From positions 16,539-80,538 of the forward strand of contig PLOH01000072.1 of the NCBI GenBank assembly GCA_003142955.1: 64,000 bases of DNA, written 5' to 3'. Under the pieces are notes generated by a model that worked only from the letters and a program-made list of their open reading frames with translations, ran no database searches and was not told where the DNA came from. This stretch comes from Opitutia bacterium. GTDB lineage: Bacteria; Verrucomicrobiota; Verrucomicrobiia; Opitutales; Opitutaceae. The translations under genes were made by a program, and so were the position numbers. Shown in pieces: positions 33,250 through 64,000 of this stretch (the stretch's first letter is position 1; each line of letters opens with the position of its first letter).

Positions 33250-33455
33250 GATCCACGGTATGGTCCGCCGACAAGCGGCGACCCTACGTCGAACGCATCG
33301 ATCCGGCGTAAGGCGCCTCCGGCGGGGCGCCCCAATTTCTTGACCGTCGCCAAAAGGCTTGTCCGGCCTGCCAACGTCAGCGCATATTCCTCCCTGGCCG
33401 GCGACCGACCGAAGGGGTTCACCGCAAGATAATGCCGCCGCAGATTCGTTTATCC

Positions 33456-34385: not shown

Positions 34386-34508
34386 CAATCCGCGGCAACT
34401 CCGCGTGCCGCCTGCGGTCAGGCGGCGGCCTGGCCTCGTGAACCGATTGGGTCTGACCATCGCGCTGCCTCCGCCGTGATGACGGGAGGGTCTATTTCGG
34501 GGTCCACT

Positions 34509-34979
34509 TCAAGCCCCGATCAGGAAATAGCCCTTGCAGTAGAATCCCAACAACGACGCGGTCAGTCCCAGCCAGGACGGGAGGGGACGATATTCGCGCG
34601 CCCACGGCTCGAACAGGGCCAGGAGGAAGCGCAGCCACCCCAGGGCGTCGGGACGGGCGGTGATCATGAGATTCTGGAAGCAGCGGAAATAGAGCAGCGC
34701 GAGCGACACGCTAATAATGCCCCACGGGGATCCCAGACGCCGCATGTGGCGGGCGATCACAGCACAGACGCCGGCGAGAAAGACAAGATTCAGAAGTCGA
34801 TGCGCCCCAAAGCCGATGCCCAACCAGTTCCGGAATAGCAGAACGACATAGTTGTAGAGCGGGCTGAAAGAATAGGCGGCGGCCGGGATTTCGCCGACCG
34901 CGAAAGGGTTACGGTGGTTGGCCAGAAGCCAGGTGGGATGTGGGCTGCCTGAGACGCGGAGAAGCCTGCGGTGGATTGG
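34509..34979 (-). pseudogene. fragment of a polytopic membrane (GT-C-like) protein lacking a start
   Basis: ORF 34509..34823 begins at a TTG, but the frame is open and protein-like upstream to a stop at about 34980 (PTWLLANHRNPFAVGEIPAAAYSFSPLYNYVVLLFRNWLGIGFGAHRLLNLVFLAG) with no ATG/GTG/TTG. Only about 155 codons, in a lower-GC patch. Confidence 0.4.
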
Positions 34980-45897: not shown

Positions 45898-46574
45898 AAA
45901 AGATCCCGCAACGCACCGCCTTCATCACCGGCAGCTCGCGCGGCATCGGTGCCGCCATCGCATCCGAGCTGCGCGCGCGGGGCTTCCGGCTGGTTGCGCC
46001 GTCCCGCGGCGAACTCGATCTCGAACAGCCGGCCTCGATCGAGGCGTGGCTGCGGGAGCATCCCGCGCCCGCCGTGGATGTGCTGGTCAACAACGCCGGC
46101 GTCAATTTCCTGCAGCCCCTCGCCGAGCTCGAAAGCCGGACCTGGCCGGCGATGCTCCAGACCAATGTGTCGGCGCCGCTACGCCTGATCCAGGCCTTCG
46201 TCCCGCACATGCGCCGGCAGCGCTGGGGGCGGATCCTGAACGTCAGCAGCATTCTCGGTTTCGTGGCGCGCGAGCGTCGCGCCGCCTATTCCATGACCAA
46301 GGCGGCGCTGAACGCGTTGACCCGCAGCGCGGCGGTGGAGTTCGGCCCGGAGGGCGTGCTCGTCAATGCACTCTGCCCGGGTTACGTCGAGACCGCGTTG
46401 ACCCGGCAGAACAATTCCTCGACCGAGATCGCGGCCCTGGCCGCTTCGATTCCGCTCCAACGCTTGGCCCAGCCCGAGGAACTGGCCCGGGTGGCGGCCT
46501 TTCTGTGCTCCGAGGAGAATACCTATCTGACCGGGCAGATGGTGGTGGTGGACGGGGGCTTTACCTGCCGATGA
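45894..46574 (+). CDS. classical SDR oxidoreductase (FabG-like)
   Basis: ATG at 45894 overlaps the ThDP-enzyme stop (ATGA). TGSSRGIGAAI, NNAG, YSMTKAAL. Confidence 0.88.
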   Translation: MKKIPQRTAFITGSSRGIGAAIASELRARGFRLVAPSRGELDLEQPASIEAWLREHPAPAVDVLVNNAGVNFLQPLAELESRTWPAMLQTNVSAPLRLIQAFVPHMRRQRWGRILNVSSILGFVARERRAAYSMTKAALNALTRSAAVEFGPEGVLVNALCPGYVETALTRQNNSSTEIAALAASIPLQRLAQPEELARVAAFLCSEENTYLTGQMVVVDGGFTCR

Positions 46575-47647
46575 GCGCGGTGCTGACAATCCAGAGCCGC
46601 AGCCATCCCTACACCGTCGAGACTTTTGACTCGCTCGGCGAGGCGTTGGCTGCCACCCCCGCGGCCGCGGCGGGCACGCTGTGTCTGGCCGATCGCGCGG
46701 TGCACGCCCATTATCACGTTGATTTCGAACGCTGCCTGCCGCCCGAGAGGATTTTGCTGGTCGAGGCGAGCGAGGAGGCCAAGTCGTTTGAGGCGATGGC
46801 GCCGGTGTTCACGTGGCTGCTCCGCCGTGGCTTCAAGCGCGATGGATGCCTGTTGGTTGTGGGCGGCGGAGTGCTGCAGGATATCGGCTGTTTCGCGGCG
46901 TCCGTGCTGATGCGCGGGGTGCGTTGGGAGCTCCTACCCACGACGTTGCTGGCCCAATGCGACAGTTGCATCGGCAGCAAAAGCTCCCTCAATCTCCAGT
47001 TATTCAAGAACCAGATCGGCACCTTCTATCCGCCGCACCGCGTCCTGCTGGCTCACGGGGTCTTGCGGACGCTGCCCTGGGACGAGATCCGGTCCGGGCT
47101 GGGCGAAGTGATCAAGCTCCACCTGCTGGCCGGCGAGCAGCCCTTCGCCGAGCTGATGGACAGTCTGGCCGCGCTGCCGGGCGATGATTCGATGCTGCCG
47201 CGCTGGGTACTCAGCTCCCTGCGGATCAAGCAAACCTATATCGAGCCTGACGAATTCGACCGCGGGATCCGCAACCTGCTGAACTATGGGCACACGTTCG
47301 GCCACGCCTACGAATCGGCGACGCACTATGAAATTCCCCATGGCATCGCCGTGACTCTGGGCATGCTCACGGCCACTTGGGTGTCGGTGCGCTTGGGCTT
47401 GGTGGACGCCAGCCATTATGCGGCAATGAAGGACCGCCTTCGCCCGTGGCACGAACCCTACGGATCCCGGCTGAAGTCGGTCGAGCTTTCGGCCGTCTTG
47501 GACGCGATCAAGCTCGACAAGAAAGCCACCCGGTCAGCGTTGCATTGCATCCTCACCCGCGGGATCGGCCGGATGGAGAAAATCTCCGTGGACCTGGAAA
47601 GCCAGTTGCGTCCTGCGCTCGGTGAATTAATCGCTCGCGAAATCTGA
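46571..47647 (+). CDS. 3-dehydroquinate synthase-family protein (sugar phosphate cyclase superfamily)
   Basis: ATG at 46571 overlaps the SDR stop (ATGA). VVGGGVLQDIGCFAAS, GEVIKLHLL, metal ligands LLNYGHTFGHAYE and PHGIAV. Confidence 0.82.
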   Translation: MSAVLTIQSRSHPYTVETFDSLGEALAATPAAAAGTLCLADRAVHAHYHVDFERCLPPERILLVEASEEAKSFEAMAPVFTWLLRRGFKRDGCLLVVGGGVLQDIGCFAASVLMRGVRWELLPTTLLAQCDSCIGSKSSLNLQLFKNQIGTFYPPHRVLLAHGVLRTLPWDEIRSGLGEVIKLHLLAGEQPFAELMDSLAALPGDDSMLPRWVLSSLRIKQTYIEPDEFDRGIRNLLNYGHTFGHAYESATHYEIPHGIAVTLGMLTATWVSVRLGLVDASHYAAMKDRLRPWHEPYGSRLKSVELSAVLDAIKLDKKATRSALHCILTRGIGRMEKISVDLESQLRPALGELIAREI

Positions 47648-47695
47648 ACCCGAGGAGTTTTCTCAAGATCCCCCCGCCGCCCGTCCATTCGTCTT

Positions 47696-48784
47696 ATGGA
47701 ACGAAACATTTTCGAAAACCTGTTTGTCCTGGAGATGGCCAGCAACCACCTCGGCAAGCTGGAGCGCGGTCTCCAGATTGTGCGCGAGCACAGCCGGATC
47801 GTCCGTTTCAACAACGTCCGGGCTGCGATCAAGCTGCAGTTCCGGGATCTCGACAGCTTCGTGCACAAGGATTTTCGCGATCGCGAGGACACCCGCTACA
47901 TCCGGCGGGTGCTGGATACCCGGCTGGGCAAGGACGACTACGCCACGCTCGTGGAGGCGATCACCAAGAGCAACTGCATCCCGATGGCTACGCCGTTCGA
48001 CGAGAACTCCGTCGACTGGTGCGTGGAGTTCGGACTGCCTATCATCAAGATCGCCAGCGCGGACAGCAACGACTGGCTGCTCCTGGAGAAGATCGCGAGC
48101 ACCCGGAAGCCCTGCATCATCTCGTTCGGCGGCACGCCGCTGAAGGACATGGACGATGTGGTCACCTTTTTCGAGAACCGCAACATCCCCCTCGCCATCA
48201 ATCATTGCGTGGCCGCCTATCCCCACGAGGAAAACGAGGCGGAGCTGGAGCAGATCGATTATCTGCGTGACCGCTATCCCGGCCATACGATCGGCTATTC
48301 CTGCCATGAGTACCGCGACTGGACGATGTCGGTGGCGATCGCCTATGCCAAGGGAGCGCGAACGTTCGAGCGCCATATCGACATCGACAGCGACGGCGCC
48401 GAGGTCGCGCCCTATTCCTCGCGGCCCCGGCAGATCGACGACTGGTTCAAGGCTTTTCACCGGGCCGTGGCCTTCTGCGGCACCGCGAGGACGAATCGGA
48501 AGGTCCCGCTGGCCAAGGAAACCTCCTATCTCGATTCTTATGTGCGGGGCGCCTACGCCCGCCGCGACCTGATCCCAGGACAGATCTTGACCGAAAACGA
48601 CATCTATCTGGCCATCCCGCTGCAGAAGGGCCAGTTGTCCTGTCGGGAGTTGATGCTCGGCCGATTCGGCCACCGGATCGTCAAACCGGTGACCAAGGAC
48701 GCACCGCTGACGATCGACACGGTCGATACGCCCTATTCGCAGGACGAGCACCTACGGGCGTTGATCTACAGCCGAGGCCTGTGA
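47696..48784 (+). CDS. NeuB/PseI/SpsE-family PEP-dependent sugar aldolase (sialic-acid-synthase fold) with C-terminal SAF domain
   Basis: [45 protein letters not shown]. The C-terminal approx 60 aa is SAF-like. Confidence 0.85.
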
Positions 48785-48823: not shown

Positions 48824-49753
48824 ATGAAAAAGATCTCCGTAGTCAGCGGATGCTACAATGAGGAGGCCAACCTTGAGGAACTCGTGGGGCGCGTGTTGGC
48901 GGTCGCCGCAAAATACCCGACGTACGAATGGGAGCATATCATCATCGACAATTGTTCCACCGACCGCTCGGCGGACGTGCTGCGCAGCCTGGCCGGGTGC
49001 GACCGGCGCATCAAAGTGATCTTCAATGTCCGCAACTTTGGCCACATCCGGTCGCCGTATCATGCCATGCTGCAGGCGCACGGCGATGCGGTGATCTACC
49101 TGGCCTCGGACCTCCAAGATCCCCCCGAGCTCATCGAGCAGTTCATTCCCAAGTGGGAGGAGGGCTGGAAGGTCGTGGCCGCGATCAAAGATCACAGCGA
49201 GGAATCCTCGTTGTTCTTCCTGGTCCGGAGCGCCTACTACCGGCTCATTGCCCTCCTGGCGGAGACGGAGCTGTTGAAGAACTTCACCGGATTTGGCCTC
49301 TACGACCAGGCGGTCATCGAGCACCTGCGCGCCTTCGATGACCCCTATCCCTATCACCGTGGCCAGATCTCCGAACTGGGCTATCCCGTGGCGCGCGTCG
49401 CCTTCACCCAGCCGCAGCGCAAACGCGGTGTCACGAAGAGCAATTTCTTCACGCTGTATGACCTGGCGATGCTCGGTTTCACCAACCACTCCAAGGTCCC
49501 GCTGCGACTGGCCACCTTCCTGGGTTTCGCCTGCGCGCTGCTCTCGTTTTTGGCCGGCTCGGTCTACCTGGTGCTCAAGCTCCTGTTCTGGCGGGAGTTT
49601 CCCATCGGGCAGGCTCCGGTTGTGGTCGGGCTCTTTTTTCTGGGATCGGTGCAGTTGCTGTTCATCGGCGTCCTCGGTGAATACATCGGCGCGATCTATA
49701 CCAAGGTCTCCAAGCGCCCCTTGGTGGTGGAGCGCGAGCGGATCAATTTCTGA
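48824..49753 (+). CDS. GT2 polyprenyl-phosphate glycosyltransferase, copy 3
   Basis: KISVVSGCYNEEANL, IYLASDLQDPPE, two C-terminal TM helices. Confidence 0.88.
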   Translation: MKKISVVSGCYNEEANLEELVGRVLAVAAKYPTYEWEHIIIDNCSTDRSADVLRSLAGCDRRIKVIFNVRNFGHIRSPYHAMLQAHGDAVIYLASDLQDPPELIEQFIPKWEEGWKVVAAIKDHSEESSLFFLVRSAYYRLIALLAETELLKNFTGFGLYDQAVIEHLRAFDDPYPYHRGQISELGYPVARVAFTQPQRKRGVTKSNFFTLYDLAMLGFTNHSKVPLRLATFLGFACALLSFLAGSVYLVLKLLFWREFPIGQAPVVVGLFFLGSVQLLFIGVLGEYIGAIYTKVSKRPLVVERERINF

Positions 49754-49852: not shown

Positions 49853-51433
49853 ATGAGCCTATTCTCACTCGGAAAGACCAATCCCGCGACTGAGACCAGC
49901 CGGCTTCGTCTCTCGGTTTCGCTCACCCTGGTGTTTCTGGTCCTGGCTGGAATTGGCGCCTGGCGGCATGAACTCTGGCGGGATGAGATGCAGGCGTGGC
50001 TCAACGTCCGGGATGCGCCGAACCTCTCGGCGTTGCTCGAGGAGGTTCACTACAACGGGGCGCCCTCCCTTTGGTACTTGTTGTTGCGACCGCTGGCGCT
50101 GCTGACCTTCCGGCCGGAGGCGATGCAGATCCTGACGTGGATTCTCGCGGGCGCCACGGTTTTCGTCTTCGTGCATTTCGCTCCGTTCAACCGTCTGCAA
50201 AAGGCGCTGCTCGTCTGCAACTATTACCTCTTGTTCGAGTACGGGATTGTCTGCCGGAACTACCTGCCCGGGATCCTGGGCCTGGGCATCGCCTGCGTAC
50301 TCTTTCCGCGGGCGGAAGAACGGCCCTGGCCGTTCATTGCCGCGCTCCTTGCCGCCGCCTTGGCCAGTGTCCACAGCCTGATCGTGGCCGTGGCGCTGGC
50401 CGGCGGATTCTGGGCGCCCCGCTGTTTTCGCTGGGGCCCGCCGAAGGACGCCGGCGCCGGTTCCGCCCGCTTTCAGGCAGGGCCGCTGCTCTGCTTCGCA
50501 GGCGGGCTTGCCTATGCGGTCTATTCGATGCTCCCGCGGGCCGACACCCTCTACCCGCAGACGGACGGGTGGATCCTGGATTGGGTTCCGATCCGGCTTG
50601 CGAGAGTGGCCTCGGCCGTCGTCAATTCGTGTTTCACCTGGCCTCGGCCGGCGGGGTTTTCCCGGATCCCTCCGTGGGACACTCCGACGTTTTCCATTGA
50701 GAACGGGCAGATCTTCATCTGGGCGCTGCTGCTTTTTGTGCTGTCCGTCCTCTTCTTCAAACGTCATGCGGGGGCATTGGTTCTCTATGTCGTGGGAACG
50801 GTCGGCGTCGCTGCTTTCTTCTATGTCAAATACATCGGCGCCGCGCGGCACGCGGGCTTGCTGTTCTTCACGTTTTTATTCGCCCAGTGGATCAAACAGG
50901 CGTCGCGGCCCCGGCCTTCCCCCGGTTCATCCGCGGTGTTCGACCGGTGGGCCTCTGTGGTGCTCACAGCGATGCTGGCGGCCCAGGCGGTGACCGGGGT
51001 CTGGGCGCTGAAGGAGGATTTCAACCAGCGGTTTTCCTGTGGAAAGGCGGCGGCGCAGATTCTGCAGGAGCGCCACCTCGACCGCGGGTTCATCGCGGTC
51101 GCTCCGGACTGGGCGGGTGCCCCGCTGGCGGGATATCTGAATCGCTCGCTCTACTATCCCAACGCGCGAGGGTATGGTCGCGCCACCCACTGGGACAAAC
51201 GGCGGACCGAGTTCCTGGAGGACGATGAGATTATGCGCCGAACCATCGAGGAGGCCAATGGCCAGGCCTTCGTCATTTCGTTCGAGCATCCATTGGCGAA
51301 AGAGTTCACCGAAAAATACGGCTTGGAAACGGTGGCCGACGTGGTTGGGTCCATGACGCCGTTCGAAGACTACCACCTCTTCTACCGGCCGGGGAAGGCG
51401 GCAGCAGGCGCGAGTCCGGAGTCGACGCATTGA
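49853..51433 (+). CDS. polytopic membrane protein, GT-C-like glycosyltransferase candidate
   Basis: 526 aa, more than 10 TM helices. Acidic first-loop motif WRHELWRDEMQAWL. Soluble C-terminal approx 130 aa. Follows a polyprenyl-P GT2. Confidence 0.7.
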   Translation: MSLFSLGKTNPATETSRLRLSVSLTLVFLVLAGIGAWRHELWRDEMQAWLNVRDAPNLSALLEEVHYNGAPSLWYLLLRPLALLTFRPEAMQILTWILAGATVFVFVHFAPFNRLQKALLVCNYYLLFEYGIVCRNYLPGILGLGIACVLFPRAEERPWPFIAALLAAALASVHSLIVAVALAGGFWAPRCFRWGPPKDAGAGSARFQAGPLLCFAGGLAYAVYSMLPRADTLYPQTDGWILDWVPIRLARVASAVVNSCFTWPRPAGFSRIPPWDTPTFSIENGQIFIWALLLFVLSVLFFKRHAGALVLYVVGTVGVAAFFYVKYIGAARHAGLLFFTFLFAQWIKQASRPRPSPGSSAVFDRWASVVLTAMLAAQAVTGVWALKEDFNQRFSCGKAAAQILQERHLDRGFIAVAPDWAGAPLAGYLNRSLYYPNARGYGRATHWDKRRTEFLEDDEIMRRTIEEANGQAFVISFEHPLAKEFTEKYGLETVADVVGSMTPFEDYHLFYRPGKAAAGASPESTH

Positions 51434-51506: not shown

Positions 51507-53468
51507 TCATCTGGGCAGCTCAGTGCGGCCGTCCAGCACCGCGGCATCCGCCCAATCTGCCTGATCCCAACCAACCCCGTCACCAGCGTCCCCGACCGCG
51601 AGCTTAAGCTCAGTCACTCCGGTGACGTCAATCTTGAGCTTTTCAATCGGGGTTCCCCATAGCATCACCGGCGTCTGGTGGCGCAGTTGCCCGTCCGTAT
51701 AAACGGAGAAGATCACGCTGCCTGGCTGGCCATGGGCATTGTCGTCAAGTCCGACGTCCGCGGTAAACCATTTGTAGTGTCCGCCAAGGGAGAAGGTGAT
51801 CTCCGAGATCGCGTGGGTCCCGATCCCGCGCCGATAGGTGACCCCTTGGAGCCGGATCGGTTTGCCAACGATTGACTGGTCCCACTGGGGCGGGGCGCCA
51901 AGCGACTGCGTGGCGCGTAACGGGTTGTCATCACTCAAATAGTGCGAGGTCTCCTCCGCTCGCCTCGGTTTCAGCTGGTAGATCATCGGGGTCGACTCGG
52001 GCGCGGGAAGCATGGTCACCAGCTTGAGTCTCCGCCGATCCACCATGGGGAAGTTCCCCTGGAAGGCGGGCCAGATCGTGTGCACGAGCAGGAAGTCGCC
52101 TGGTTGAGCCCGGTCCCAGAAATTGATATCGGCCAGCGTGCCGAATCCCGGGCGCCCGGCGTGCTGGTGGACCGGGTCGGCAAAGGCGTAGGCAAAGCGC
52201 AGGTCGAGTTCATTCTGGGTCGAGGCGTCGACCCACAGATGGGCGTCGTGATGGTGCTGCAGCCAGTCGACCACCGCCGGCATGTAGTCCCGGCCGTCCA
52301 CATATTCACGGTGATTGGCCATCGCGACGCGCACGAGCATGATTGCCATCACCGCCATCAATCCAGCGATGACACCCTTCAGAATCCGGGAACGCGCCGC
52401 CAGGATCCACTCTCCGGCGAAGGCGATCACGGTGGCCGTCGGCACACTGATCAAGGCGAAGTACCGCGGTTCCTTGTGGTAGGGCAGGTAAGCCTGCCAG
52501 TTCATGCTGCCGAACTCGATCCAGAGCAAAACGCCGAGCACAAAGCAGGCCGCCGGCCGGCCGCGATTGCCGGCGAAGAAACAAAACGGAAGGGAGGCGA
52601 TGAGCAGCCACATGTACGGGCCGTAATAGGGATAGTGATTCGGGTAAGGCCCGAAGCCCGTTGTCTCAGTGCGAAGGCCCAGAAACACCTGGGGCAGGTA
52701 ACGAAAGCTCGTCGATACGTCGCCGACGCCTTCCCCTTTGTCCGCCTGCACCTTGAACCAGACGATCGAGGTATGAAAGCGGGCGAGCCAGTCACCGGTG
52801 AGATGCTTCAGCACCGCCGCGTCGACCAGCATGACCGTGAAAAACCCCAGCCCGACGATGGCATATTCCCAGGGGAACCGGCGCTCAAAAATCATGTCCG
52901 TCAGGGCCACCAAGAAGATCCCCCAGGCGAAGATGAAGCCCCATTCCTTGGTGATCGCGGAGAATCCCCAGATCAATCCGGCGGTCGCCCCGAGGATCAG
53001 CCGCCGCGCCCCGACCGCCTGGCGGAACAGAAGAAGCGTCAGGAGCAACGCGCCGCCATAAAACGACATCTCAATGTCCCCCCGGATGGTCGAAGACACC
53101 ATCCAGTCGATTGGATTCAGCACCAGGGCCGCGCAGCCGACTGCCGCGGCGCCGATGGACAGGCCCAACGTCCGGATCGAGGCATAAGCCAGCGGGACTG
53201 CGGCCAGTCCGTAGAGAAACGGGGGCAACAACGCGCTCCAATAGGAGACGCCGAAGACTTTTAGCGACAGCGCGATGGGGCCCCACATCCCGAACCGGAT
53301 CCCCCACATCGAATGGAGCAGCTCATAGTTATTGTCATTAAAAAAATTCCTTATATAGAATAGATAGACCCAGTCGTCGTGACCGTACAATCCTGAGAAC
53401 AACGTCAGCCGCAAGGCGGCCGCGAGGAGCAGGAAGGTGACGGGGACCAGGATCTCTTTCCTGTGCAT
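51507..53468 (-). CDS. GT-C (GT39/ArnT-PMT-like) membrane glycosyltransferase fused to a C-terminal NPCBM carbohydrate-binding module
   Basis: N-terminal approx 500 aa is polytopic, with GLYGHDDWVYLF in the first loop. The C-terminal approx 150 aa (DNA approx 51507-51960) reads YLSD..GIGTHAISEITFSLGGHYKWFTADVGLDD...GSVIFSVYTDG...LKLAVGDAGDGVGWDQADWADAAVL, the NPCBM/NEW2 pattern. Confidence 0.8.
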   Translation of the reverse strand: MHRKEILVPVTFLLLAAALRLTLFSGLYGHDDWVYLFYIRNFFNDNNYELLHSMWGIRFGMWGPIALSLKVFGVSYWSALLPPFLYGLAAVPLAYASIRTLGLSIGAAAVGCAALVLNPIDWMVSSTIRGDIEMSFYGGALLLTLLLFRQAVGARRLILGATAGLIWGFSAITKEWGFIFAWGIFLVALTDMIFERRFPWEYAIVGLGFFTVMLVDAAVLKHLTGDWLARFHTSIVWFKVQADKGEGVGDVSTSFRYLPQVFLGLRTETTGFGPYPNHYPYYGPYMWLLIASLPFCFFAGNRGRPAACFVLGVLLWIEFGSMNWQAYLPYHKEPRYFALISVPTATVIAFAGEWILAARSRILKGVIAGLMAVMAIMLVRVAMANHREYVDGRDYMPAVVDWLQHHHDAHLWVDASTQNELDLRFAYAFADPVHQHAGRPGFGTLADINFWDRAQPGDFLLVHTIWPAFQGNFPMVDRRRLKLVTMLPAPESTPMIYQLKPRRAEETSHYLSDDNPLRATQSLGAPPQWDQSIVGKPIRLQGVTYRRGIGTHAISEITFSLGGHYKWFTADVGLDDNAHGQPGSVIFSVYTDGQLRHQTPVMLWGTPIEKLKIDVTGVTELKLAVGDAGDGVGWDQADWADAAVLDGRTELPR

Positions 53469-53488
53469 GGCGGCGAAAGCGATGCGGG

Positions 53489-56032
53489 CTATTTGCTACG
53501 CAGAAGCTTGGCCCCAGCCCAGTCCGCATGATCGCAGTGAATGCCGTCCCCGGCATCGGTCACGACCAGCTTCAGCGTGGTGACATCGGAAACGTCGATC
53601 TTGATGCTATCCGGGGGATCACCGGCCCGCATTACTTTAGATTCGTAGACTTTGCGATCGTCGACCCAAACCTCGAAGACCACGGTTCCGATTCCGCCCA
53701 GTTGGGTGTCGTCCACTCCGAGATCCGATTCAAAAACCGCATAGTGACGGTCGAGGTTGAACGTGATCTCCGAGGGAGCATGGGTGCCCAAGCCGAATGG
53801 ATAGGTCTGCTTCGCTAGGCTTAAGGTCGTTAGGTCGAAAGATTTGTCGATCTTGAGGGTGCCATAACCCTGTTGCACCGAGGTGGGACTTAGCTCGCTT
53901 AGCCAGACGGCAGGCCGGGAGGTTTCAACTTCCCGGTCTCGCCGAATGGCCTCGGCGCTTTGTTCACCCACTTCGTAGATAGAGTAACGGACTCCGAGGC
54001 AGTCTTGGTCGAAGGAAGTCTTGAACCGGCGTCCCATGGTGGCGCGATCCACATGATAGAGTCCCTCTTCCGCCGGGCCGACGAAGATATGCGTGACTTT
54101 GCATTTTGTGATCAAGGCAGGGTCGGCCTCCCGGTAGGCCCGGGCGACCAGCGCTTCCGTCGCCTCGTCGCCAAACCCCGTTTCGCGGGTATAGGACCCA
54201 TTGACCACCCGCCGGCCAGCGAAGGCTGGAACAAGGTGCACGGTCGAGTTGGCGGTCAGGAACACCGCGTCTTTTTGCGTGTTGAGCCTGATCCACTCGG
54301 CCACCAGTCGGTCGCCGGCGCTGAACAGCCGCTCCGGTTCCCGTCCGTACCGCCCGATCCACTCGCTGGCCGTCGGAACGACCGCACCAACGGAGACGAG
54401 CAGGCCTGCGACAATCCTCCATGATCGGGACCCCTGCCAAAGAAACGCCAGAAGACGGCCGCTGTAGATGCAGAGCGCGAGATCGAAATAGAGAAAGAAC
54501 TTGTTACTGTCTCCCCAGTTCGGGGTGAACCGGTAGACATTGATTACCAGGAAAAAGAAGCCCGTCACCCCCAACAGGGCAAGCAGGGCGATTTCTCCCC
54601 GCCGGCCCGATTTGGCCTCGCGCGGCGGCAGACGGAAGGAAATGAGCACCGCGATCAGTCCGAGGACCAGCGGAACGCCGCCCGCCCGGACCCAAAACCA
54701 GCACCGTTGAAGATGCAGAAAGCGGGGGATTTCCGGCAGGGCCCCGAGTTGTTTTGCGACGTCGAACCCGGAGAATCCGCGAGTCTTTTCCTGGGAAAGA
54801 ATAAAGCCGAGCTGCAACCCGACCACCACCCCGGCGAGAAGCATCGCGATAATCTTGAGCGGCGCATGGGACGGGGGAAACTCACTCCCGGAAGGAAGCG
54901 GCTTTTCCGCCGAGGCGGGTTTGGCAGCCGAGGGGAGGGGAGTGCCATCGCTGATGGTCATGCGGATGAGGCGGGCGACAAACCCGTCGCGCCCGGTTGC
55001 CGCCCGCCAGGGTGGTGCGGGTTCGAACAGCACCACCAATCCGACCAGCGGACCGATGGTGAGGAAAGTGTGCATATGAAACAGAGGGAGAAACGCCACC
55101 ACGCCCAAGAGGAGGTAGGTGGTTCGATCCGTCGGCGTCTGTCCGCTAAACCGCCGGTAGAGGACGGTGAGCACGAGCATCGCCAGGGGAAACCCGAAGA
55201 GAAACGGAAGTTGCGGCTGGAAATAATCGATGACGACGTTCAGGAAATTGTAGTAGGGATAGGCGATGTGATCGGCGAAGCTGCTCCAGGAATGGAGCGA
55301 CAGCGGCACGCTTCCGACGGGATAGCCAGCGAGGCTGAAAAGAAGATTCACCACGCCGACATGGCCGAAGAAAAAAAGCAGACCGGCGAACGTCGTTGCG
55401 GTCCGGCTCTTCAGCACGGAGAAGAGCCCATGGAAGGTCAGCGAGCACAGCGCGAAGGCCAACAGCACCATGGGGATCTTGAAGGCATAGAAGAGAGAAA
55501 AGCCTCCCCGGCACAGGATGGCCGAAAAGAAATCAGCCATGAAGTGGTAGCTGAGCTTGGCGGCCGCGGATTGCGGATTGAGCGGCGGGAAAGTGGTTTG
55601 TTCCAGAAACGCCGAGGCCGTGCTCATATGAAAGGCGAGGTCCCGGGTATTGCCGCGAAACCAGATGTTGCCGTCGGGGTCCGTCCACACGCAGACGGCG
55701 AAATAGGCCGTGATCAAAACGGTGGGGACAACGCTGGCCTTCCAGAATTTCCGGTCAAAGACGAGCAGCGAGGCGAACCAGCGGGCGTTCCGTTGTCTGA
55801 AGCGATACGCCAGGGCATTGAGGGCGAGCATCAAGGCGGTGCCGATGGCCACCGTGTCGACGCTGAAGCCGAAGGCCCAGGCCAGCAGGAACACAATCCA
55901 AGAGCCCCAGAAGCAGCCGAGCACAATTGCGGCGCCTAGGCGCACCAGAAAATCGCCCTGACTCAGGGAGAATTCTTCGTCGGTGACGAAACCGAACCAT
56001 ATCACGGAGAGCAAGAATATGGCACTAAGCAT
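53489..56032 (-). CDS. large GT-C-superfamily-like membrane protein (DUF2298/YYY-like loop) fused to a C-terminal NPCBM module
   Basis: 847 aa. Loop FPPLNPQSAAAKLSYHFMADF. The C-terminus (DNA approx 53489-53950) reads WLSEL..GLGTHAPSEITFNLDRHYAVFESDLGVDD...GTVVFEVWVDD...LKLVVTDAGDGIHCDHADWAGAKLL. Confidence 0.75.
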   Translation of the reverse strand: MLSAIFLLSVIWFGFVTDEEFSLSQGDFLVRLGAAIVLGCFWGSWIVFLLAWAFGFSVDTVAIGTALMLALNALAYRFRQRNARWFASLLVFDRKFWKASVVPTVLITAYFAVCVWTDPDGNIWFRGNTRDLAFHMSTASAFLEQTTFPPLNPQSAAAKLSYHFMADFFSAILCRGGFSLFYAFKIPMVLLAFALCSLTFHGLFSVLKSRTATTFAGLLFFFGHVGVVNLLFSLAGYPVGSVPLSLHSWSSFADHIAYPYYNFLNVVIDYFQPQLPFLFGFPLAMLVLTVLYRRFSGQTPTDRTTYLLLGVVAFLPLFHMHTFLTIGPLVGLVVLFEPAPPWRAATGRDGFVARLIRMTISDGTPLPSAAKPASAEKPLPSGSEFPPSHAPLKIIAMLLAGVVVGLQLGFILSQEKTRGFSGFDVAKQLGALPEIPRFLHLQRCWFWVRAGGVPLVLGLIAVLISFRLPPREAKSGRRGEIALLALLGVTGFFFLVINVYRFTPNWGDSNKFFLYFDLALCIYSGRLLAFLWQGSRSWRIVAGLLVSVGAVVPTASEWIGRYGREPERLFSAGDRLVAEWIRLNTQKDAVFLTANSTVHLVPAFAGRRVVNGSYTRETGFGDEATEALVARAYREADPALITKCKVTHIFVGPAEEGLYHVDRATMGRRFKTSFDQDCLGVRYSIYEVGEQSAEAIRRDREVETSRPAVWLSELSPTSVQQGYGTLKIDKSFDLTTLSLAKQTYPFGLGTHAPSEITFNLDRHYAVFESDLGVDDTQLGGIGTVVFEVWVDDRKVYESKVMRAGDPPDSIKIDVSDVTTLKLVVTDAGDGIHCDHADWAGAKLLRSK

Positions 56033-56131: not shown

Positions 56132-57760
56132 TTATTGGCTCATGCGAAACAAGGTCGCCTTCGAGCGCGGGCCGGCAAACTCGGCGACCCGTTCCCATTT
56201 CTCAGGAGTATAGCGGGATTCCAGAATGTTGATGCACATCGGGGTGATCAGAATCAGGTCTCCCGGCTTGGCCTGATCCAGGAAGATAACCTCCTGGATG
56301 GCGCCGTATCTCGGCATGCCGCGATCCTGGTGCGCGGGATCCGCAAATCGATAGCCAAACCGCAAGTCGAGATCCTGTTGGATGGAGCCGGTGGCCCACA
56401 TCCGCGTTTCCGGATGGGCTTTCAGCCAGAGGGTGAGCTCAGGCAGGAAATCCCGTCCGTCACTATAAATGAGATGCTCAGAATGCAGGACGAACCCGAT
56501 GCTGCCGGCCAAGGCGAGTAGCGCACCGGCGAGCAACGCCCGGCCCCGCGGTCGAAGCCGTTGCCACATGAAATCCAGCAGCCACCCGATGAGGCAGGCA
56601 ATGGGAACGCTTAAGATGGTCAGATAACGCGGTTCCTTATGATACGGGATATAGATGCTCGTGCTCATCGAACCGAACTCGATCCACAGCAGGGTTCCGA
56701 TGACGAAGAAAAGAAGGCTGGACCAGGCCGATCTTCGCCCCCAGAGGTGCTGCCAGATCCCCCAACCTAGGGCTCCCAAAAACAGGTAGAAGTACCAACC
56801 AAAGATCGGATATCCGTTCGCGAAGCGTTGATTTGCGGAGAGATTGTTTGAAAGGTTGAGGAAAAGGCTCGGCAGATAGCCGTAGCTGAGGCTGAGGTCG
56901 TTGGCATAGCCTCCCGTCAGGCGAGCGCGTTCAAACCACCCGATGGACTGCTGAAGACGTTGCTGGAAAACGCCGGTGGTGAGATACAAGAAGAAACCGT
57001 CTGCGGCCAGCACCGCCAAAAAACCCAGGAACACCCAGGCATAGACCCAGGGAATCCTGCGCTCACGCAGACACAGCCAGAGAATGACCGTGAGGAATCC
57101 CCAGGCATAGACGTAGGCCCATTCCTTGTTCAGCGCACCCAGGCCCCAGGCGATACCGGTCGCGCCAGCCAGTAGGACCCGGCGGACGGATTTCGACGGC
57201 GGGGTAGTCTCGATCAGGACCAGGCCCAAGACCACCAACCCCCCGTAACAGGACATCTCGATATCTCCGCGAATCGTGGTGGATACAAACCAGTCGATCG
57301 GGTTGATGGCCAGGGCCAAGGTAGCCCAGCGGGCGACGCGAGTCTCCCGACTGATCCGGAAGGCGATCCCGTAGGCCAACGGAATGGAGGCCAATCCCAT
57401 GATGAAGCCGGGGGCGAAGGCCAGCCAGTAATGAACGCCAAAGAGCTTGAACAGGATCGCGATCGGCAGCCAGACCCCCCACCGCAGGCCCCAGAGGCTG
57501 CTGAGAAGATCTTGAGTCGATCCGTTAAGAAAATTCCGGATGTGAAAAAGATACATCCAGTCGTCATGGCCATGAAGTCCGTTGAAGATCCAAAGGCGCA
57601 ACGCACAACTCAAGGCGACGACCGCCAGCAGCCACGCCACGGTGGAGGCTTGCGGCGGAGCTTGAGGAGCGGCGTTTGCGCCACGGGCGCCGCGCCGTTC
57701 GACCTTGGGCCCCGCTGAGGCTGGGATGGGTTTTGGATCCACAGGAACGCTGGTTACCAT
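56132..57760 (-). CDS. GT-C (GT39-like) membrane glycosyltransferase, paralog of 51507..53468 without NPCBM
   Basis: An internal ATG (MVTSVPVD...) is chosen because the 57898 start would overlap the upstream gene by 62 nt. Colinear similarity to the 51507 protein: LRLWIFNGLHGHDDWMYLFHIRNF vs LRLTLFSGLYGHDDWVYLFYIRNF; INPIDWFVSTTIRGDIEMS vs LNPIDWMVSSTIRGDIEMS. Confidence 0.78.
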   Translation of the reverse strand: MVTSVPVDPKPIPASAGPKVERRGARGANAAPQAPPQASTVAWLLAVVALSCALRLWIFNGLHGHDDWMYLFHIRNFLNGSTQDLLSSLWGLRWGVWLPIAILFKLFGVHYWLAFAPGFIMGLASIPLAYGIAFRISRETRVARWATLALAINPIDWFVSTTIRGDIEMSCYGGLVVLGLVLIETTPPSKSVRRVLLAGATGIAWGLGALNKEWAYVYAWGFLTVILWLCLRERRIPWVYAWVFLGFLAVLAADGFFLYLTTGVFQQRLQQSIGWFERARLTGGYANDLSLSYGYLPSLFLNLSNNLSANQRFANGYPIFGWYFYLFLGALGWGIWQHLWGRRSAWSSLLFFVIGTLLWIEFGSMSTSIYIPYHKEPRYLTILSVPIACLIGWLLDFMWQRLRPRGRALLAGALLALAGSIGFVLHSEHLIYSDGRDFLPELTLWLKAHPETRMWATGSIQQDLDLRFGYRFADPAHQDRGMPRYGAIQEVIFLDQAKPGDLILITPMCINILESRYTPEKWERVAEFAGPRSKATLFRMSQ

Positions 57761-57836: not shown

Positions 57837-59948
57837 TCACTTCGAGGACGGTTTGCCAAGGAGGTAACCGGGCAGGTCCAGCGCATCGAGCGCCGCATGA
57901 CGATCGTCCGTCCACACCACGGTTTCGCCCGGCGGCCGCGGATCGAAAAGGTTCACGGTGCGCTTCAGCCGGCCCTCGTCTTCCTCGGCAGGCAACCAGG
58001 CGAGGACTTGGCTGAGCTGCGCGGGGCGGAAAGCCAGGATGTATTTCGTATCCACGAAGTCCCAATCGCTGGTTTCCGAATGGGTCGTCACCTCCAGGCT
58101 GGACCAGCCCAGCGCCTGCGCCGTCGCGCCGACAATCGGGAACACGGTGCCATAGCGATTGGTCGAGTGGACCACGAGCACTCCTTCCCGTTTCTGCAGC
58201 CGCGCAAAGTAGATCGCCAGGGCCTCGCGAGTGAGCAGGTGGGCGGGCATTGCGTCGCCGGAGAGGGCATCGAGGACAATCACGTCGTAGTTGGTGGGCG
58301 ACGCTTCAAGCCCTTTGCGGCCGTCCGCCTGCTTGATGTGGATCCGTCCTGGTGAATCCGAAACAAAGCTGAAGAAATCACGCGCGATGCGTTCGGATTG
58401 CGGATCGATGTCCCAGAAATCGAACGTGTCGGCCGGGCGAGCGTAGGCGGCCAGGGTTCCGGCGCCAAGACCGATGACGCCGATCGTGACGGCGGGATTC
58501 GCCTTTTGCGTCTCCGCAATCACGCGGCCCACACCAGAGCTGGGCGTATAATAGAGCGTGGGATGTCGGCGGGTTTCTCGGCTCGTCGTGATCTGCGTGC
58601 CATGAGTGGTGGTTTCATTTGCAAGGACCAGTCCGTCTTCCACGGATTTCAACATCGTATACCCATAGATGTTCCGGAAGCGCCGAATGCGGGTGGCTCC
58701 GATGGCTTCATCGCGGGTCTGCTGCAAGACCAGCCCCGCCACCGGCGCGGATATAATTAAAATTGCCACTGCGACCGTCAAGACGTCGCGGCGGGCGAGC
58801 AGCCGTACAAGCCCCAGAATCAGCAGCAGACATGAAACGGCGAGAAACTCGGAGGGACGCAGGAAGAAAAACGGCGCGCCCAGGCTGGCGAAGAGCCCGC
58901 CGGCAATACCGCCGGTGGCCAGCGCGACATAGAAGAAACCAAACCGTTCTTTGGGCCGGCGCTCGTAGAGGAGTCCGTTGCCGAAAAAACTCCCGGCCGC
59001 CGTCGTCGACATCAGCCAAAAGGCGGCCCAGCCGTTCACCGTTGCGCCGCTGACCCCCTTGGTGAGCATGAATCCCGTCAGGCTGAGCGCCAGCCAGCCG
59101 AGGCAGGCGAGGGTATAGCGCGGTTGCCACCAACCGGAAAAGGTCACAAGGAAACTCAGAAGGTAAACGCCGAAGGGCCCGACCCACGCGGTCGGATTTG
59201 AGCCGATCTCAGCCGCGAGATGATGCGTCGCTCCGAGCATGCCGAGACAGGTGAGCGCACTGAGGCCGAGCCATGCCGTGGTGCGGGAGTAGGGAATGGT
59301 TTCCGGTGCGTCGTTCGGAGCGGCCACAGATAGGCCGACGCGCAGGTAACACAAAGCCGCAATGGCTGTCAGGCAGGCCGTGACAAAAAGGAGGCCGTGC
59401 CAGATGAACATCTGGTCGGAAAGACCGATCACCCGCTCGATCGTGAACGGGTAGAGCACGACCGCGGCAAGACCGCCGGCATTGGAGCCCGCGTAGAGAT
59501 GGTAGGGCACCGGCTGGCCGCGCCGTCGCAGCCAGCCATGCATCAACGGGCCGATGCTGAATAACAGGACCATTGCGGGCAGGGTCGCGAGGGCGAGCGT
59601 GAGCAGAATCCCCCAATAGCCGGTCCAATCGCCCTCCAAGACCCAACGCAGACGGCTGACAGTCACAGCGATCAAGGCGAGCCCGCCCATGGCAGCCACT
59701 TGGAAATGGACGGGGCGACGAAGCAGCCACAAGGCCCAGCCATATCCAAGGAGCAACGTGGTCTGGAAGTAGAGCATGGTGCCCAGCCACGCCGGCGCAG
59801 TTCCCCCTTGGACGGGCAGCAGCAACTTTCCCACGAGAGGTTGAACGGAAAAGGCCAGGAAGGAAGCCAGCGGAACGGCCATGATCACTGCACCAAACAA
59901 TAGTCTTGAGAGCTTCGCCGGGGGAATTCGGAGAGAAGGGAGGCGCAT
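57837..59948 (-). CDS. polytopic membrane domain fused to a spermidine-synthase-like SAM-fold domain
   Basis: 703 aa. N-terminal approx 430 aa has about 11-12 TM helices. C-terminal VIGLGAGTLAAY...FWDIDPQSERIARDFF...YDVIVLDALSGDAMPAHLLT is an aminopropyl/methyltransferase fold. Confidence 0.8.
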   Translation of the reverse strand: MRLPSLRIPPAKLSRLLFGAVIMAVPLASFLAFSVQPLVGKLLLPVQGGTAPAWLGTMLYFQTTLLLGYGWALWLLRRPVHFQVAAMGGLALIAVTVSRLRWVLEGDWTGYWGILLTLALATLPAMVLLFSIGPLMHGWLRRRGQPVPYHLYAGSNAGGLAAVVLYPFTIERVIGLSDQMFIWHGLLFVTACLTAIAALCYLRVGLSVAAPNDAPETIPYSRTTAWLGLSALTCLGMLGATHHLAAEIGSNPTAWVGPFGVYLLSFLVTFSGWWQPRYTLACLGWLALSLTGFMLTKGVSGATVNGWAAFWLMSTTAAGSFFGNGLLYERRPKERFGFFYVALATGGIAGGLFASLGAPFFFLRPSEFLAVSCLLLILGLVRLLARRDVLTVAVAILIISAPVAGLVLQQTRDEAIGATRIRRFRNIYGYTMLKSVEDGLVLANETTTHGTQITTSRETRRHPTLYYTPSSGVGRVIAETQKANPAVTIGVIGLGAGTLAAYARPADTFDFWDIDPQSERIARDFFSFVSDSPGRIHIKQADGRKGLEASPTNYDVIVLDALSGDAMPAHLLTREALAIYFARLQKREGVLVVHSTNRYGTVFPIVGATAQALGWSSLEVTTHSETSDWDFVDTKYILAFRPAQLSQVLAWLPAEEDEGRLKRTVNLFDPRPPGETVVWTDDRHAALDALDLPGYLLGKPSSK

Positions 59949-59970
59949 AAAGGAATTGAGAGACGAATCG

Positions 59971-61113
59971 TCAATCCCGTCGGAGCGACGCGAGGGCCGA
60001 GCGCAGCGGGGACGCCATGATCGACGGGTAGGCTTCGCAGGGCGTCCAGCAATTTGGGCATTGCCCAGCGGCGACCGCGCGACGCACCCCGTCCCGGCGA
60101 GACTTCTCGATGATCGGCATCAGCGCATAGCCGGTATCGCGGATGTTTCCCAGGGGTTTGTCCCAAATGGTGCAAGGATAGACCTGGCCGGTTTCTGAAA
60201 GATAGGCGGTCGAGAGCAGCGCCGAACAGACGATCCGGGTCCGCCCGGTCGCGAGGTAGCGTGCGGCCTCGGCCCGATAGACCCGCTCGATGGCACGCAT
60301 CGCGACGGACGATCCCGTCGTGGACTTGACGGTCGCGACGCGGAGGGCCGCGGCGATCTCCTTCCGGTGCGCTTCGCCACCGAATCCGTCGGCCCCTTGG
60401 CTGGCAGGGTTGCCATAGAAGTGTGGCGATAAATGGGGAATATTGAGATGGAGCGTCGCCCGGGTGATCGCGGACTGCTTGCGCTGACCGAGGGCGGTGT
60501 TGACCGCGGCAAATGTGTCCTCGACGAGCTCGGTCGTCGTGCGGCCGCAGGACGCCTTGTGCCCGTGCAAGGTCATGCCGATGTACGCATTCTCGGCGCC
60601 AATCTCCGTCCGCACCGCAGCAAACGTGTCGATGGCATGGGCGAAATCGTTGCGGACCCCACGGAGGCGGTCATTAAGGTCGGGCGGGCCGTCAATCGAG
60701 ACGGAGACGATCAGCCGGGCTCGCACGGTCCGTCGAAGCTGCCCCACCGCCTCGCAAAGGCGCGCCGTCGCCAGGCCGTTGGTCGGAAAGTGAATCAACA
60801 GGAGTTCGGGGCAGACTTCGGCGAAAGCCTGGATGACCTGGACGAAATCGGGGCGGTCGGTGGGTTCGCCGCCGGTGAAGTCGATCCACTGGAGAAATGG
60901 ATTCGCGGCGGCGATGGCTTTCACTTCGTCCAGCGTAAGCTCGCGGTCGAGCCCACCCGGCGTGTCTTTCACCTTCCAGATGTCGCAGTACGTGCAGCGG
61001 GAGTAACAGCGCTTGGTCACCACAAACGTCAATTTCGTCGGGGGACCTTCGATCCCCGCGGCGGCGGCGAGAATTCGGCCGGTGAAACGGCTCCATGAAT
61101 ACAATCGGCTCAT
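59971..61113 (-). CDS. radical SAM protein with SPASM/twitch-like C-terminal Cys cluster
   Basis: CX3CX2C motif VVTKRCYSRCTYCDIW, GGEPT. C-terminal cysteines IVCSAL...VYPCTIW...GQCPNCWTPCEAY. The ATGA start overlaps the stop of the upstream GT-C gene. Confidence 0.85.
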   Translation of the reverse strand: MSRLYSWSRFTGRILAAAAGIEGPPTKLTFVVTKRCYSRCTYCDIWKVKDTPGGLDRELTLDEVKAIAAANPFLQWIDFTGGEPTDRPDFVQVIQAFAEVCPELLLIHFPTNGLATARLCEAVGQLRRTVRARLIVSVSIDGPPDLNDRLRGVRNDFAHAIDTFAAVRTEIGAENAYIGMTLHGHKASCGRTTTELVEDTFAAVNTALGQRKQSAITRATLHLNIPHLSPHFYGNPASQGADGFGGEAHRKEIAAALRVATVKSTTGSSVAMRAIERVYRAEAARYLATGRTRIVCSALLSTAYLSETGQVYPCTIWDKPLGNIRDTGYALMPIIEKSRRDGVRRAVAAGQCPNCWTPCEAYPSIMASPLRSALASLRRD

Positions 61114-63014: not shown

Positions 63015-64000
63015 TAGGTTCGTGCGATTTGGCGGTTGCTGGGACTGGTCTTCGTCAACAAAGCCGAGCCGAGAGCAAGGTGCTGTACGCCACTCTCCAT
63101 CCACGCCTCGATGATGCCTGCGGCATCGTCGGACATCGGCTTGCCGTGCAGATTGAGGCTGGTGTTGATCACCGCGCCGGTGCCGGTGAGCGCCTTGACC
63201 TGCGCCAGAAAGCGATACCATGGGTCGGCGGTGTTCTCTACCACCATCTGTGGCCGGCACGAGCCGTCAGGGCCGATCGCTCCTGCGAGGGCAGCCCGGC
63301 CGCGCGGCGTGGTGAGAAATCCCATGGTCATGTGCAGGTTGGCGTCGCGCGGGCCGCGGTAATCCGCGAGCAGCTCGGACGCCTCGGAGAGCAGAATCGT
63401 CGGACAGAACGGCTGGAACCAGACCCGGCGCTTGAGTCGCAGATTCAGATCGTCCCGGGCGGCGATGCTGTCGGCCCGGGCCACGATGCTGCGGGCGCCG
63501 AGCGCGCGCGGACCCAGTTCCATCCGGCCTTGGGCCCACATCACGATATCGCCGGCCGCCACGCGCTCGGCGACCTCTGTGGCGATGTCAGCCGGGCGCT
63601 GACAGGCGGCGCCGGTGGCATTGGCCACAGCCTCGGCGCCCTTGCCAAGGTCGCCATGATCGATTCCGAGGCGGAAATCGGCAAAGGGTTGCGGGCGCTG
63701 GCCGGTCAATCGATGCCACACCATGAGTGCCGCGCCCAAGCCGAGGCCGCCGTCGCCCATTGCGGGGCAGACTTCGAGCCGCTCGATGCCGGGCGTGGAC
63801 CTCACCAGCCGGTTCACCTTGATGTTGGAAGCCACGCCGCCCGCGTAGCCAAAGGAAGCGATGCCCGTCGCCTCGACAAGCTGCGCAAAGAACCGTGGGA
63901 CGAAATGCTCCAGCGTTTGCTGCGCCATGCGGCAGACCTGTTCGCGCGGTGTGCTCCAGACGACGGCCGCAACTGCAGCGGCCATCCGGGCCGGAGCGAT
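63014..64000 (-). CDS. carbamoyltransferase (NodU/CmcH family), C-terminal part; the gene continues beyond the right edge
   Basis: GYAGGVASNIKVN, GDGGLGLGAALMVW, RVWFQPFCPTIL, HMTMGF, VINTSLNLHGKP. The frame is open to position 64000 and the family is about 570-600 aa long. Confidence 0.85.
   Translation of the reverse strand: MAPARMAAAVAAVVWSTPREQVCRMAQQTLEHFVPRFFAQLVEATGIASFGYAGGVASNIKVNRLVRSTPGIERLEVCPAMGDGGLGLGAALMVWHRLTGQRPQPFADFRLGIDHGDLGKGAEAVANATGAACQRPADIATEVAERVAAGDIVMWAQGRMELGPRALGARSIVARADSIAARDDLNLRLKRRVWFQPFCPTILLSEASELLADYRGPRDANLHMTMGFLTTPRGRAALAGAIGPDGSCRPQMVVENTADPWYRFLAQVKALTGTGAVINTSLNLHGKPMSDDAAGIIEAWMESGVQHLALGSALLTKTSPSNRQIART

Follow-up and report, generated by a model that had tools for sequence, protein, structure and literature searches.

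What would a lectin module do at the end of a polytopic membrane protein? The question is raised by two adjacent genes at positions 51,507 to 56,032 of a 64,000-nucleotide stretch of DNA from an Opitutia bacterium (contig PLOH01000072.1 of GenBank assembly GCA_003142955.1; "the window" designates this whole stretch). The encoded proteins, of 653 and 847 amino acids (aa), both terminate in a module of the NPCBM/CBM51 family of carbohydrate-binding modules (CBMs). The mechanism that we consider most likely, with moderate confidence, is a CBM-assisted transfer of glycosyl groups, at the periplasmic side of the membrane, onto a glycan of the cell envelope.

A pair of membrane proteins with C-terminal NPCBM/CBM51 modules

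The two genes lie on the minus strand and are separated by 20 nucleotides (nt). Both open reading frames (ORFs) start with ATG and code for polytopic membrane proteins of the lengths given in the first-pass annotation, which was made from the sequence alone. The same proteins with identical gene boundaries were found on 13-14 independent metagenomic contigs and the ORFs are thus not assembly artefacts. A scan of the 51.3-56.3 kb region for promoters and terminators yielded nothing beyond consensus noise within coding sequence. The genes and their segments are listed below with the evidence used for each (AF2, AlphaFold2 model; TM, transmembrane).

51507..53468, minus strand: gene of the 653-aa protein, a predicted GT-C glycosyltransferase (PMT_2/ArnT-like) with a C-terminal NPCBM/CBM51 module (ORF, Pfam, AF2, Foldseek)
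52299..53468, minus strand: membrane core of the 653-aa protein, residues 1-390, about 11 predicted TM helices with the N-terminus inside (DSSP of the model, invariant columns)
51969..52298, minus strand: alpha/beta soluble domain of the 653-aa protein, residues 391-500, after the last TM helix, predicted periplasmic (secondary structure)
51537..51947, minus strand: NPCBM/CBM51 lectin module of the 653-aa protein, residues 508-644 (Pfam, PDB sequence search, Foldseek)
53489..56032, minus strand: gene of the 847-aa protein, polytopic and GT-C-like by predicted fold, with a C-terminal NPCBM/CBM51 module (ORF, Pfam, AF2, Foldseek)
54344..56032, minus strand: membrane core of the 847-aa protein, residues 1-563, about 12 predicted TM helices and a short hairpin (model helices, invariant columns)
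53933..54343, minus strand: alpha/beta soluble domain of the 847-aa protein, residues 564-700, after the last TM helix, predicted periplasmic
53504..53908, minus strand: NPCBM/CBM51 lectin module of the 847-aa protein, residues 709-843 (Pfam, PDB profile search, Foldseek)

Both C-terminal modules are true NPCBM/CBM51 domains, as the first-pass annotation had proposed. The Pfam NPCBM model (PF08305; 137 positions, gathering cut-off of 23.9 bits) matches residues 508-644 of the 653-aa protein over model positions 2-136 (142.8 bits, E 8.6e-42) and residues 709-843 of the 847-aa protein over positions 3-136 (151.9 bits, E 1.4e-44). The motif string quoted for the modules in that annotation is found verbatim in both translations. 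The modules share 42% identity over 153 aa (E 3e-29) and display the motifs GxGTH, DD, DAGDG and DxADWA, conserved family-wide. Profile searches of the PDB returned CBM51-containing chains only, namely the CBM51 of Clostridium perfringens GH95 (2vmg/2vmh), to which the modules are 36-37% identical, ZmpB (7js4, 7jrl, 7jrm) and an Akkermansia alpha-galactosidase (8pvs). E values for the 847-aa protein module were 4.3e-59 with 7js4 and 6e-33 with 2vmg; the same two CBM51 entries were found in a PDB sequence search with the module of the 653-aa protein. AF2 models, built on family alignments, have predicted local distance difference test (pLDDT) values mostly of 80-95 in both modules. Superposition of the modelled modules on CBM51 crystal structures by Foldseek gave template modelling scores (TM-scores, reported as TMt) of 0.85-0.90 and root mean square deviations (rmsd) of 1.6-3.2 Å, the matches including 2vmg for the 653-aa protein (E 4.2e-11, TMt 0.89, rmsd 1.7) and 2vmi for the 847-aa protein (E 1.9e-10, TMt 0.85).

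In the family of the 847-aa protein many near-invariant columns lie inside residues 712-843, which argues that the module is under constraint. The modules of the 653 and 847 families form one group, which leaves out 59 of 60 other NPCBM domains drawn at random; a shared origin is only suggested by this sequence comparison, since distances between the two families resemble those to outsiders. Known CBM51 ligands are galactose, N-acetylglucosamine (GlcNAc) and blood-group antigens (PMC3267712), and solved relatives were co-crystallised with methyl-galactose (2vmg), GlcNAc (7jrl) or, in case of the GH98 module 2vng, a ligand. NPCBM had been presented as an accessory domain of secreted glycoside hydrolases. 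It does occur there, although not exclusively: other carriers are M60 peptidases (PMC3267712), proteins of conflict systems (PMC8195603) and membrane proteins of the VanZ/Lipocone type (PMC12419801).

The membrane cores

The core of the 653-aa protein passes the gathering score of Pfam PMT_2 (30.8 versus 26.1 bits, residues 65-212). Its AF2 model (pLDDT 86.7, predicted TM-score (pTM) 0.76) has EmbA/B (7bvc, E 5.8e-8) as best-scoring GT-C fold match and ArnT (5f15, E 5.6e-7, TMt 0.58) as the match with the best TM-score; STT3, AglB, ALG9, Pmt4 and AftA are matched as well. Residues H30-D31-D32 (nt 53373..53381), directly after the first TM helix (TM1), are invariant in the family; this is the position where GT-C enzymes carry a catalytic acid (PMC11127046). 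Because PMT_2 is above cut-off, the fold matches are to GT-C proteins and the HDD motif is invariant, the core is assigned, by sequence and model, as a GT-C glycosyltransferase of the PMT_2/ArnT-like type, with predicted catalytic activity. Other conserved motifs (NPIDW..RGDIE, TKEW, HKEPRY) are found in its predicted periplasmic loops.

The core of the 847-aa protein is GT-C-like by its predicted fold only. In a model of good overall quality (pLDDT 83.2, pTM 0.82), all matches of the membrane fold with E <1e-3 are GT-C proteins: DPY19 (7zlh, 1e-6), PglB (3rce, 5e-5), STT3 and AftA. The first-pass description of the pair as glycosyltransferase-like stands therefore for the 653-aa protein at the level of family, fold and HDD motif, and for its neighbour at the level of predicted fold. 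Invariant polar residues of the 847 family cluster in loops predicted to face outside, most of all in a long conserved loop (residues 114-163, nt 55544..55693) with the invariant residues G127, N128, D131, H135, N152, P153, Y162 and H163, which could be those of an active site. The motifs YPYYNF/FQPQLPF, SQxK..FSGFDV and PNWGDSNK are also conserved in outer loops, and W506 is invariant. The alpha/beta domain that follows the core has a weak match to DUF6798 (residues 577-599). Residues 337-388 (nt 54869..55024) form a disordered, Pro/Ala/Ser-rich loop of low pLDDT, predicted to be cytoplasmic, whose length varies in the family (36 residues on average, 55 in the 847-aa protein).

Topology

Topology was assessed by taking the loops from model helices and counting lysine plus arginine (K+R) across family members. 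The K+R density in the 653 family (24 members) is 0.283 in proposed inner loops versus 0.080 in outer loops, and in the 847 family (36 members) 0.182 versus 0.056, a positive-inside bias of 3.3- to 3.5-fold. The topology proposed from the model of the 653-aa protein is N-in and comprises 11 TM helices; that of the 847-aa protein is N-out and comprises 12 TM helices and a hairpin. In either case the conserved acidic/polar motifs, the alpha/beta domain and the NPCBM module are predicted to lie in the periplasm.

The location of the lectin was also approached through natural fusions. Three clusters defined at 90% identity (P0056-58; about 1435 aa) carry, fused to the C-terminus of an 847-type protein, the 526-aa protein that is encoded next to the pair in the window (see below). 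In these fusions the order is 847-type core, NPCBM, Pro/Ser-rich linker, exactly one extra TM helix, Arg-rich loop and TM1 of the 526-aa part. One TM helix thus separates the NPCBM from the Arg-rich loop, which argues for a periplasmic lectin. With the module predicted to be periplasmic by charge bias and by the fusions, positioning of an acceptor glycan, the role put forward in the first-pass annotation, is the most reasonable one.

The 542-aa paralog and the history of the module

A third related gene precedes the pair in the direction of transcription:

56132..57760, minus strand: 542-aa paralog of the core of the 653-aa protein, without NPCBM (alignment, Pfam)

As had been noticed from the sequence, this protein is colinear with the 653-aa protein and lacks the module: it is 43% identical to residues 15-462 (E 9e-117), ends shortly after, and has no NPCBM and no Pfam match at all. 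The alignment shows that it possesses the alpha/beta domain found at residues 391-500 of the 653-aa protein. In a neighbour-joining tree of the 653/542 cores, the module-bearing clade is sister to the module-less clade that holds the 542-aa paralog, and the midpoint outgroup (P0023) bears the module. Since this outgroup carries it, a single loss is more parsimonious than two gains in this lineage, for a tree without bootstrap whose rooting is provisional. In an uncultured Verrucomicrobiae metagenome-assembled genome (MAG), three tandem module-less 542-type genes (L006, 4765..9802), whose products are 64-67% identical to the window paralog, are found upstream of an 847-type gene.

The gene cassette

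The 653-aa gene is the last of a co-directional, operon-like run of seven genes (carbamoyltransferase, PMT_2, radical SAM/SPASM, MFS/spermidine-synthase-like (SpdSyn), 542-aa, 847-aa and 653-aa proteins). The 526-aa gene and a gene of glycosyltransferase family 2 (GT2) are on the opposite strand and converge on this run. The other members are:

63014..64000, minus strand: NodU/CmcH-type carbamoyltransferase, first cassette gene (Carbam_trans_C 3.7e-42), cut by the window end
61110..63260, minus strand: PMT_2 GT-C membrane protein, 716-aa ORF (PMT_2, 36.2 versus 26.1 bits)
59971..61113, minus strand: radical SAM/SPASM protein (Pfam Radical_SAM 7.2e-13, SPASM 6.1e-4), conserved in the cassette
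57837..59948, minus strand: fused MFS/spermidine-synthase-like membrane protein (NCBIfam NF037959, 52.6 versus 40 bits), conserved in the cassette
49853..51433, plus strand: 526-aa polytopic membrane protein of no known family (invariant columns; conserved neighbour of 847-type genes)
48824..49753, plus strand: GT2 protein, polyprenyl-phosphate sugar synthase-like, PgfS/ArnC-like (Pfam Glycos_transf_2 9.2e-25)

The frame of the carbamoyltransferase is open to the window end and the protein has 626 aa on related contigs; independent gene calls place the start of the PMT_2 ORF later, which gives 629-634 aa. The GT2 protein matches NCBIfam PgfS (2.8e-46) and ArnC (3.6e-32), both under their equivalog cut-offs, and is a candidate maker of the lipid-linked donor. 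GT-C proteins together with several lipid-phosphate sugar synthases are a signature of extracytoplasmic glycosylation with lipid-linked monosaccharide donors (PMC11127046).

The 526-aa family has no match in Pfam, NCBIfam or the PDB. Its gene is a constant neighbour of 847-type genes (L005-L010, L014). Right after TM1 there is an invariant motif (H39..W42-R43-D44-E45-M46-Q47-A48-W49), present as HHExWRDEMQAW after TM1 of the corresponding part of the fusions, which resembles in sequence the "DE" motif of GT-C enzymes. The 847-type and 526-aa families are probable GT-C proteins. NCBIfam has no family for the 653-, 847-, 542- or 526-aa proteins.

Distribution of the architecture

Genome and metagenome searches found the cassette in Opitutaceae, Opitutus, Rariglobus and other Verrucomicrobiota MAGs, with 0-3 tandem 542-type copies and an optional 653-type gene. 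Its first four genes (NodU-type carbamoyltransferase, PMT_2 GT-C, radical SAM/SPASM and MFS/spermidine-synthase-like; 57837..64000 on the minus strand of the window) form a set that is always followed by an 847-like protein in many Verrucomicrobiota MAGs (L005-L011, L024, L028-L030, L042-L044); in many Opitutaceae, distant module-less 847-like paralogs come after this same set. Outside the phylum, 847-type proteins were found with NPCBM in Desulfobacteraceae MAGs (L016, L017, L021) and without it in Nitrospirae (L019, L020, L022, L023), including a Candidatus Magnetominusculus MAG. At four of these loci (L017, L019-L021) the 847-type gene adjoins carbamoyltransferase, PMT_2, small GT2 and B12-binding radical SAM genes. 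The PMT_2 gene is kept next to 847-type genes in three phyla.

The frequency of the fusion among NPCBM genes was estimated on a sample of 80 metagenomic loci, found in a narrow alignment scan, with the NPCBMs most similar to the window modules. At 79 of the 80 the NPCBM is carried by an ORF with 0-2 hydrophobic segments, as is usual for secreted or anchored proteins. The remaining one (L099, 3543..5438) codes for a 631-aa protein that scores above cut-off for PMT (PF02366) and ends in an NPCBM (E 1.3e-47); BLAST detects no similarity of its core to the two window cores. The fusion of GT-C and NPCBM is thus rare among NPCBM genes, yet found on at least three GT-C lineages. The L099 contig also carries a GT2 gene, an arabinofuranosidase-like gene and a gene of a kind typical of Planctomycetota, with DUF1559 and an N-methylation motif. 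An NPCBM profile search of a representative library matched 18,988 clusters. The best 150 of them all have several NPCBM copies and 0-2 hydrophobic segments, and are uninformative on the frequency of GT-C fusions. Homology search with the NPCBM module alone gave short fragments only.

Comparison with known systems

The first-pass annotation regarded a lectin on a synthetic enzyme as an unusual design, which is overstated because CBMs on GT-C enzymes are documented. In EmbA/B/C and AftD periplasmic CBMs bind the acceptor arabinan (PMC11127046; bioRxiv 10.1101/2019.12.22.885152). These proteins have, as predicted for the window pair, a polytopic GT-C core with periplasmic CBMs (C-terminal in Emb), but they are actinobacterial, much larger, carry other CBM families and use decaprenyl-phosphate arabinose as donor; there is no detectable sequence homology to the window pair and TM-scores are 0.27-0.41. 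Citrobacter youngae ORF12 is the GT-C of a three-component system that modifies O-antigen, and its CBM binds the backbone in unmodified form (PMC11127046). Such GtrA/GtrB/GtrC systems combine a GT2 charging polyprenyl phosphate with a GT-C, which in ORF12 has a C-terminal CBM; the window has three PgfS/ArnC-like GT2 genes and several GT-C-type genes. They differ in that the window has four or five GT-C-type proteins instead of one and no GtrA-like flippase in the ORFs scanned, and that its cassette adds the carbamoyltransferase, the radical SAM protein and the MFS/SpdSyn fusion. The CBM of ORF12 is an Ig-like beta-sandwich whereas the window modules are CBM51.

The CBM51s of C. perfringens GH95/GH98 and ZmpB, Streptococcus GH98 and Akkermansia GH110 belong to the same domain family as the window modules; they sit on secreted degradative enzymes, while the latter end integral-membrane enzymes that are predicted to be synthetic. 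ArnT/PMT_2 proteins (GT83, GT39-like) have an acidic motif after TM1, as does the 653-aa protein, and a C-terminal alpha/beta domain in the periplasm, as predicted for the latter. ArnT acts on lipid A and is devoid of a lectin module, its sequence identity to the 653-aa protein is only 12-13%, and there is no NCBIfam equivalog for the latter. In the literature library searched, no paper links CBM51 with GT-C. Novelty is limited to the role of the CBM51 family in GT-C proteins and to these uncharacterised GT-C lineages; the conserved cassette appears to be undescribed so far, and so does the probable GT-C nature of the 847-type and 526-aa families.

Proposed function and alternative explanations

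In the mechanism that we favour, both genes would code for inner-membrane glycosyltransferases of the GT-C fold, PMT_2/ArnT-like in case of the 653-aa protein and divergent in case of the 847-aa protein. The enzymes would act at the periplasmic face, presumably with polyprenyl-phosphate sugars provided by the neighbouring PgfS/ArnC-like GT2 proteins. In each protein the last TM helix would lead into the periplasmic alpha/beta domain and from there to the CBM51 lectin. The lectin may bind an envelope glycan, either the acceptor or the growing product, and hold it near the active site, which would increase its local concentration and could confer selectivity for site or chain length. The CBMs of EmbC, AftD and Citrobacter ORF12 serve as model for this role. 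The pair would operate within a cassette with several GT-C proteins, for the extracytoplasmic assembly or decoration of a polysaccharide of the cell envelope, composed of the carbamoyltransferase, PMT_2, radical SAM, MFS/SpdSyn, 542-type, 847-type, 653-type and 526-aa proteins and the GT2.

Several observations weigh against this reading. The source organism is uncultured, and the topology was drawn from model helices with the charge distribution of the reference sequence already known. No GtrA-like flippase was matched by Pfam in the small ORFs at 32.5-35.2 kb (where a hydrophilic 120-aa ORF, 34476..34838, is probably not a gene) or among the cassette proteins. The remaining objections concern the 847-aa protein. 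It matches no GT-C sequence family in Pfam or NCBIfam and the TM-scores of its GT-C fold matches are low (0.31-0.43). D131 is in the first long outer loop, yet this loop comes after the fourth helix and not after the first. Profile-profile comparison (hhalign) of the cores of the 653, 847, 716, 526 and 703 families gave no significant match, so that the 847-type cannot be linked to known GT-C families by sequence profiles; the result was null even between the two PMT_2-positive families. The lack of a family match and the low TM-scores would be accounted for if only the 653-aa protein were a transferase. The 847-aa protein would then be non-catalytic or have another activity (a polymerase- or ligase-like enzyme, a chaperone, a scaffold or an export component), its lectin passing the glycan to partners such as the 526-aa protein. 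The natural fusion to the latter, which has an RDE motif of its own, fits with this possibility as it suggests a two-subunit machine of which one part could be accessory. We regard it as unlikely: D131, H135, N128 and Y162-H163 in the long loop predicted to be periplasmic, together with the other conserved motifs, look like an active site, and no WaaL, SEDS or transporter fold was matched at E 1e-3.

The acceptor could also be a protein. The pair would in that case catalyse protein O-glycosylation in the manner of PMTs or oligosaccharyltransferases, with a lectin that, like the MIR domains of eukaryotic PMTs, reads sugars which the substrate protein already bears. The 653-aa core is PMT_2 by Pfam, the independent L099 protein has PMT (PF02366) above cut-off, and Pmt4, STT3 and PglB are found among the fold matches; on the other hand, the best-fitting ArnT (TMt 0.58) and the best-scoring Emb use lipid A and arabinan as acceptors, the surrounding genes are typical of polysaccharide or O-antigen sugars and no candidate acceptor protein was identified, which makes protein glycosylation quite unlikely. 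We give low credence to the proposal that the lectins do not bind the acceptor at all and serve instead to tether the enzymes to a different polymer of the envelope or to localise them there, or else to sense glycans from outside. The known CBM51 ligands (galactose, GlcNAc, blood-group antigens; PMC3267712) are sugars common in envelopes or in the environment, and the CBM of Citrobacter ORF12 is dispensable for catalysis (PMC11127046). Against tethering, a short linker joins the module to the enzyme's own periplasmic domain; moreover, the module is kept in most 847-type members of two phyla and recurs on unrelated GT-C cores, which argues for a role linked to catalysis. A cytoplasmic lectin that senses invaders, as in the predicted actinobacterial conflict systems where NPCBM is used intracellularly (PMC8195603), is scarcely credible here. 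The topology evidence puts the modules outside, and the neighbours are glycan-biosynthesis genes with no effector, NTPase or death-like domain seen in Pfam/NCBIfam scans. This reading was rejected on the PADLOC result, which gave no defence-system match for the pair or its membrane neighbours and one generic radical-SAM match nearby.

The preferred mechanism, CBM-assisted periplasmic transfer, admits two further proposals. It is conceivable, though doubtful, that CBM51 was recruited independently as a periplasmic glycan reader on at least three unrelated GT-C lineages (653-type, 847-type and PMT-type). Very tentatively, and jointly with this, the cassette may be an undescribed Opitutaceae assembly line with four or five GT-C enzymes, of which the 847-type and 526-aa proteins can be fused into a 1430-aa protein, working on carbamoylated or radical-SAM-modified lipid-linked sugars. 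If true, CBM51, so far a module of degradative enzymes in gut bacteria and pathogens, would extend to glycan synthesis and the lectin could serve to probe for the acceptor glycan of an uncharacterised Verrucomicrobiota envelope pathway. Two membrane families without a Pfam model, the 847-type and the 526-aa type, are also flagged as likely GT-C enzymes. No concept would be overturned, CBM-assisted GT-C catalysis being established for mycobacterial arabinan and O-antigen modification.

Sugar biosynthesis genes upstream of the cassette

Three PgfS/ArnC-like GT2 genes are present within 16 kb of the window (33432..34385, plus strand; 36266..37210, minus strand; 48824..49753, plus strand), a number that matches the multiplicity of GT-C-type genes in the region. 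Their presence near the cassette, together with the dideoxyhexose pathway described next, is consistent with glycans being built in the periplasm from lipid-linked donors. The segment 37523..45897 (plus strand) contains a complete CDP-3,6-dideoxyhexose pathway and a flavin reductase-like protein; RfbF (TIGR02623), CDP-glucose 4,6-dehydratase (TIGR02622) and RfbH (NF011936) are each above the equivalog cut-off. These genes are followed by an epimerase/reductase, a methyltransferase and an acetolactate-synthase-like thiamine diphosphate (ThDP) enzyme, and the segment could direct synthesis of a branched, yersiniose-like sugar. A short-chain dehydrogenase/reductase (SDR) gene is also found among the upstream sugar genes. 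Further downstream (46571..48784, plus strand), a putative sugar-phosphate cyclase related to AroB (TIGR04425, 416.9 versus 400 bits) is encoded directly upstream of a NeuB-like synthase, and the PgfS/ArnC-like GT2 gene also lies downstream of the cyclase. The set of cyclase, NeuB-like synthase and GT2 suggests an unusual cyclitol or higher-carbon sugar donor.

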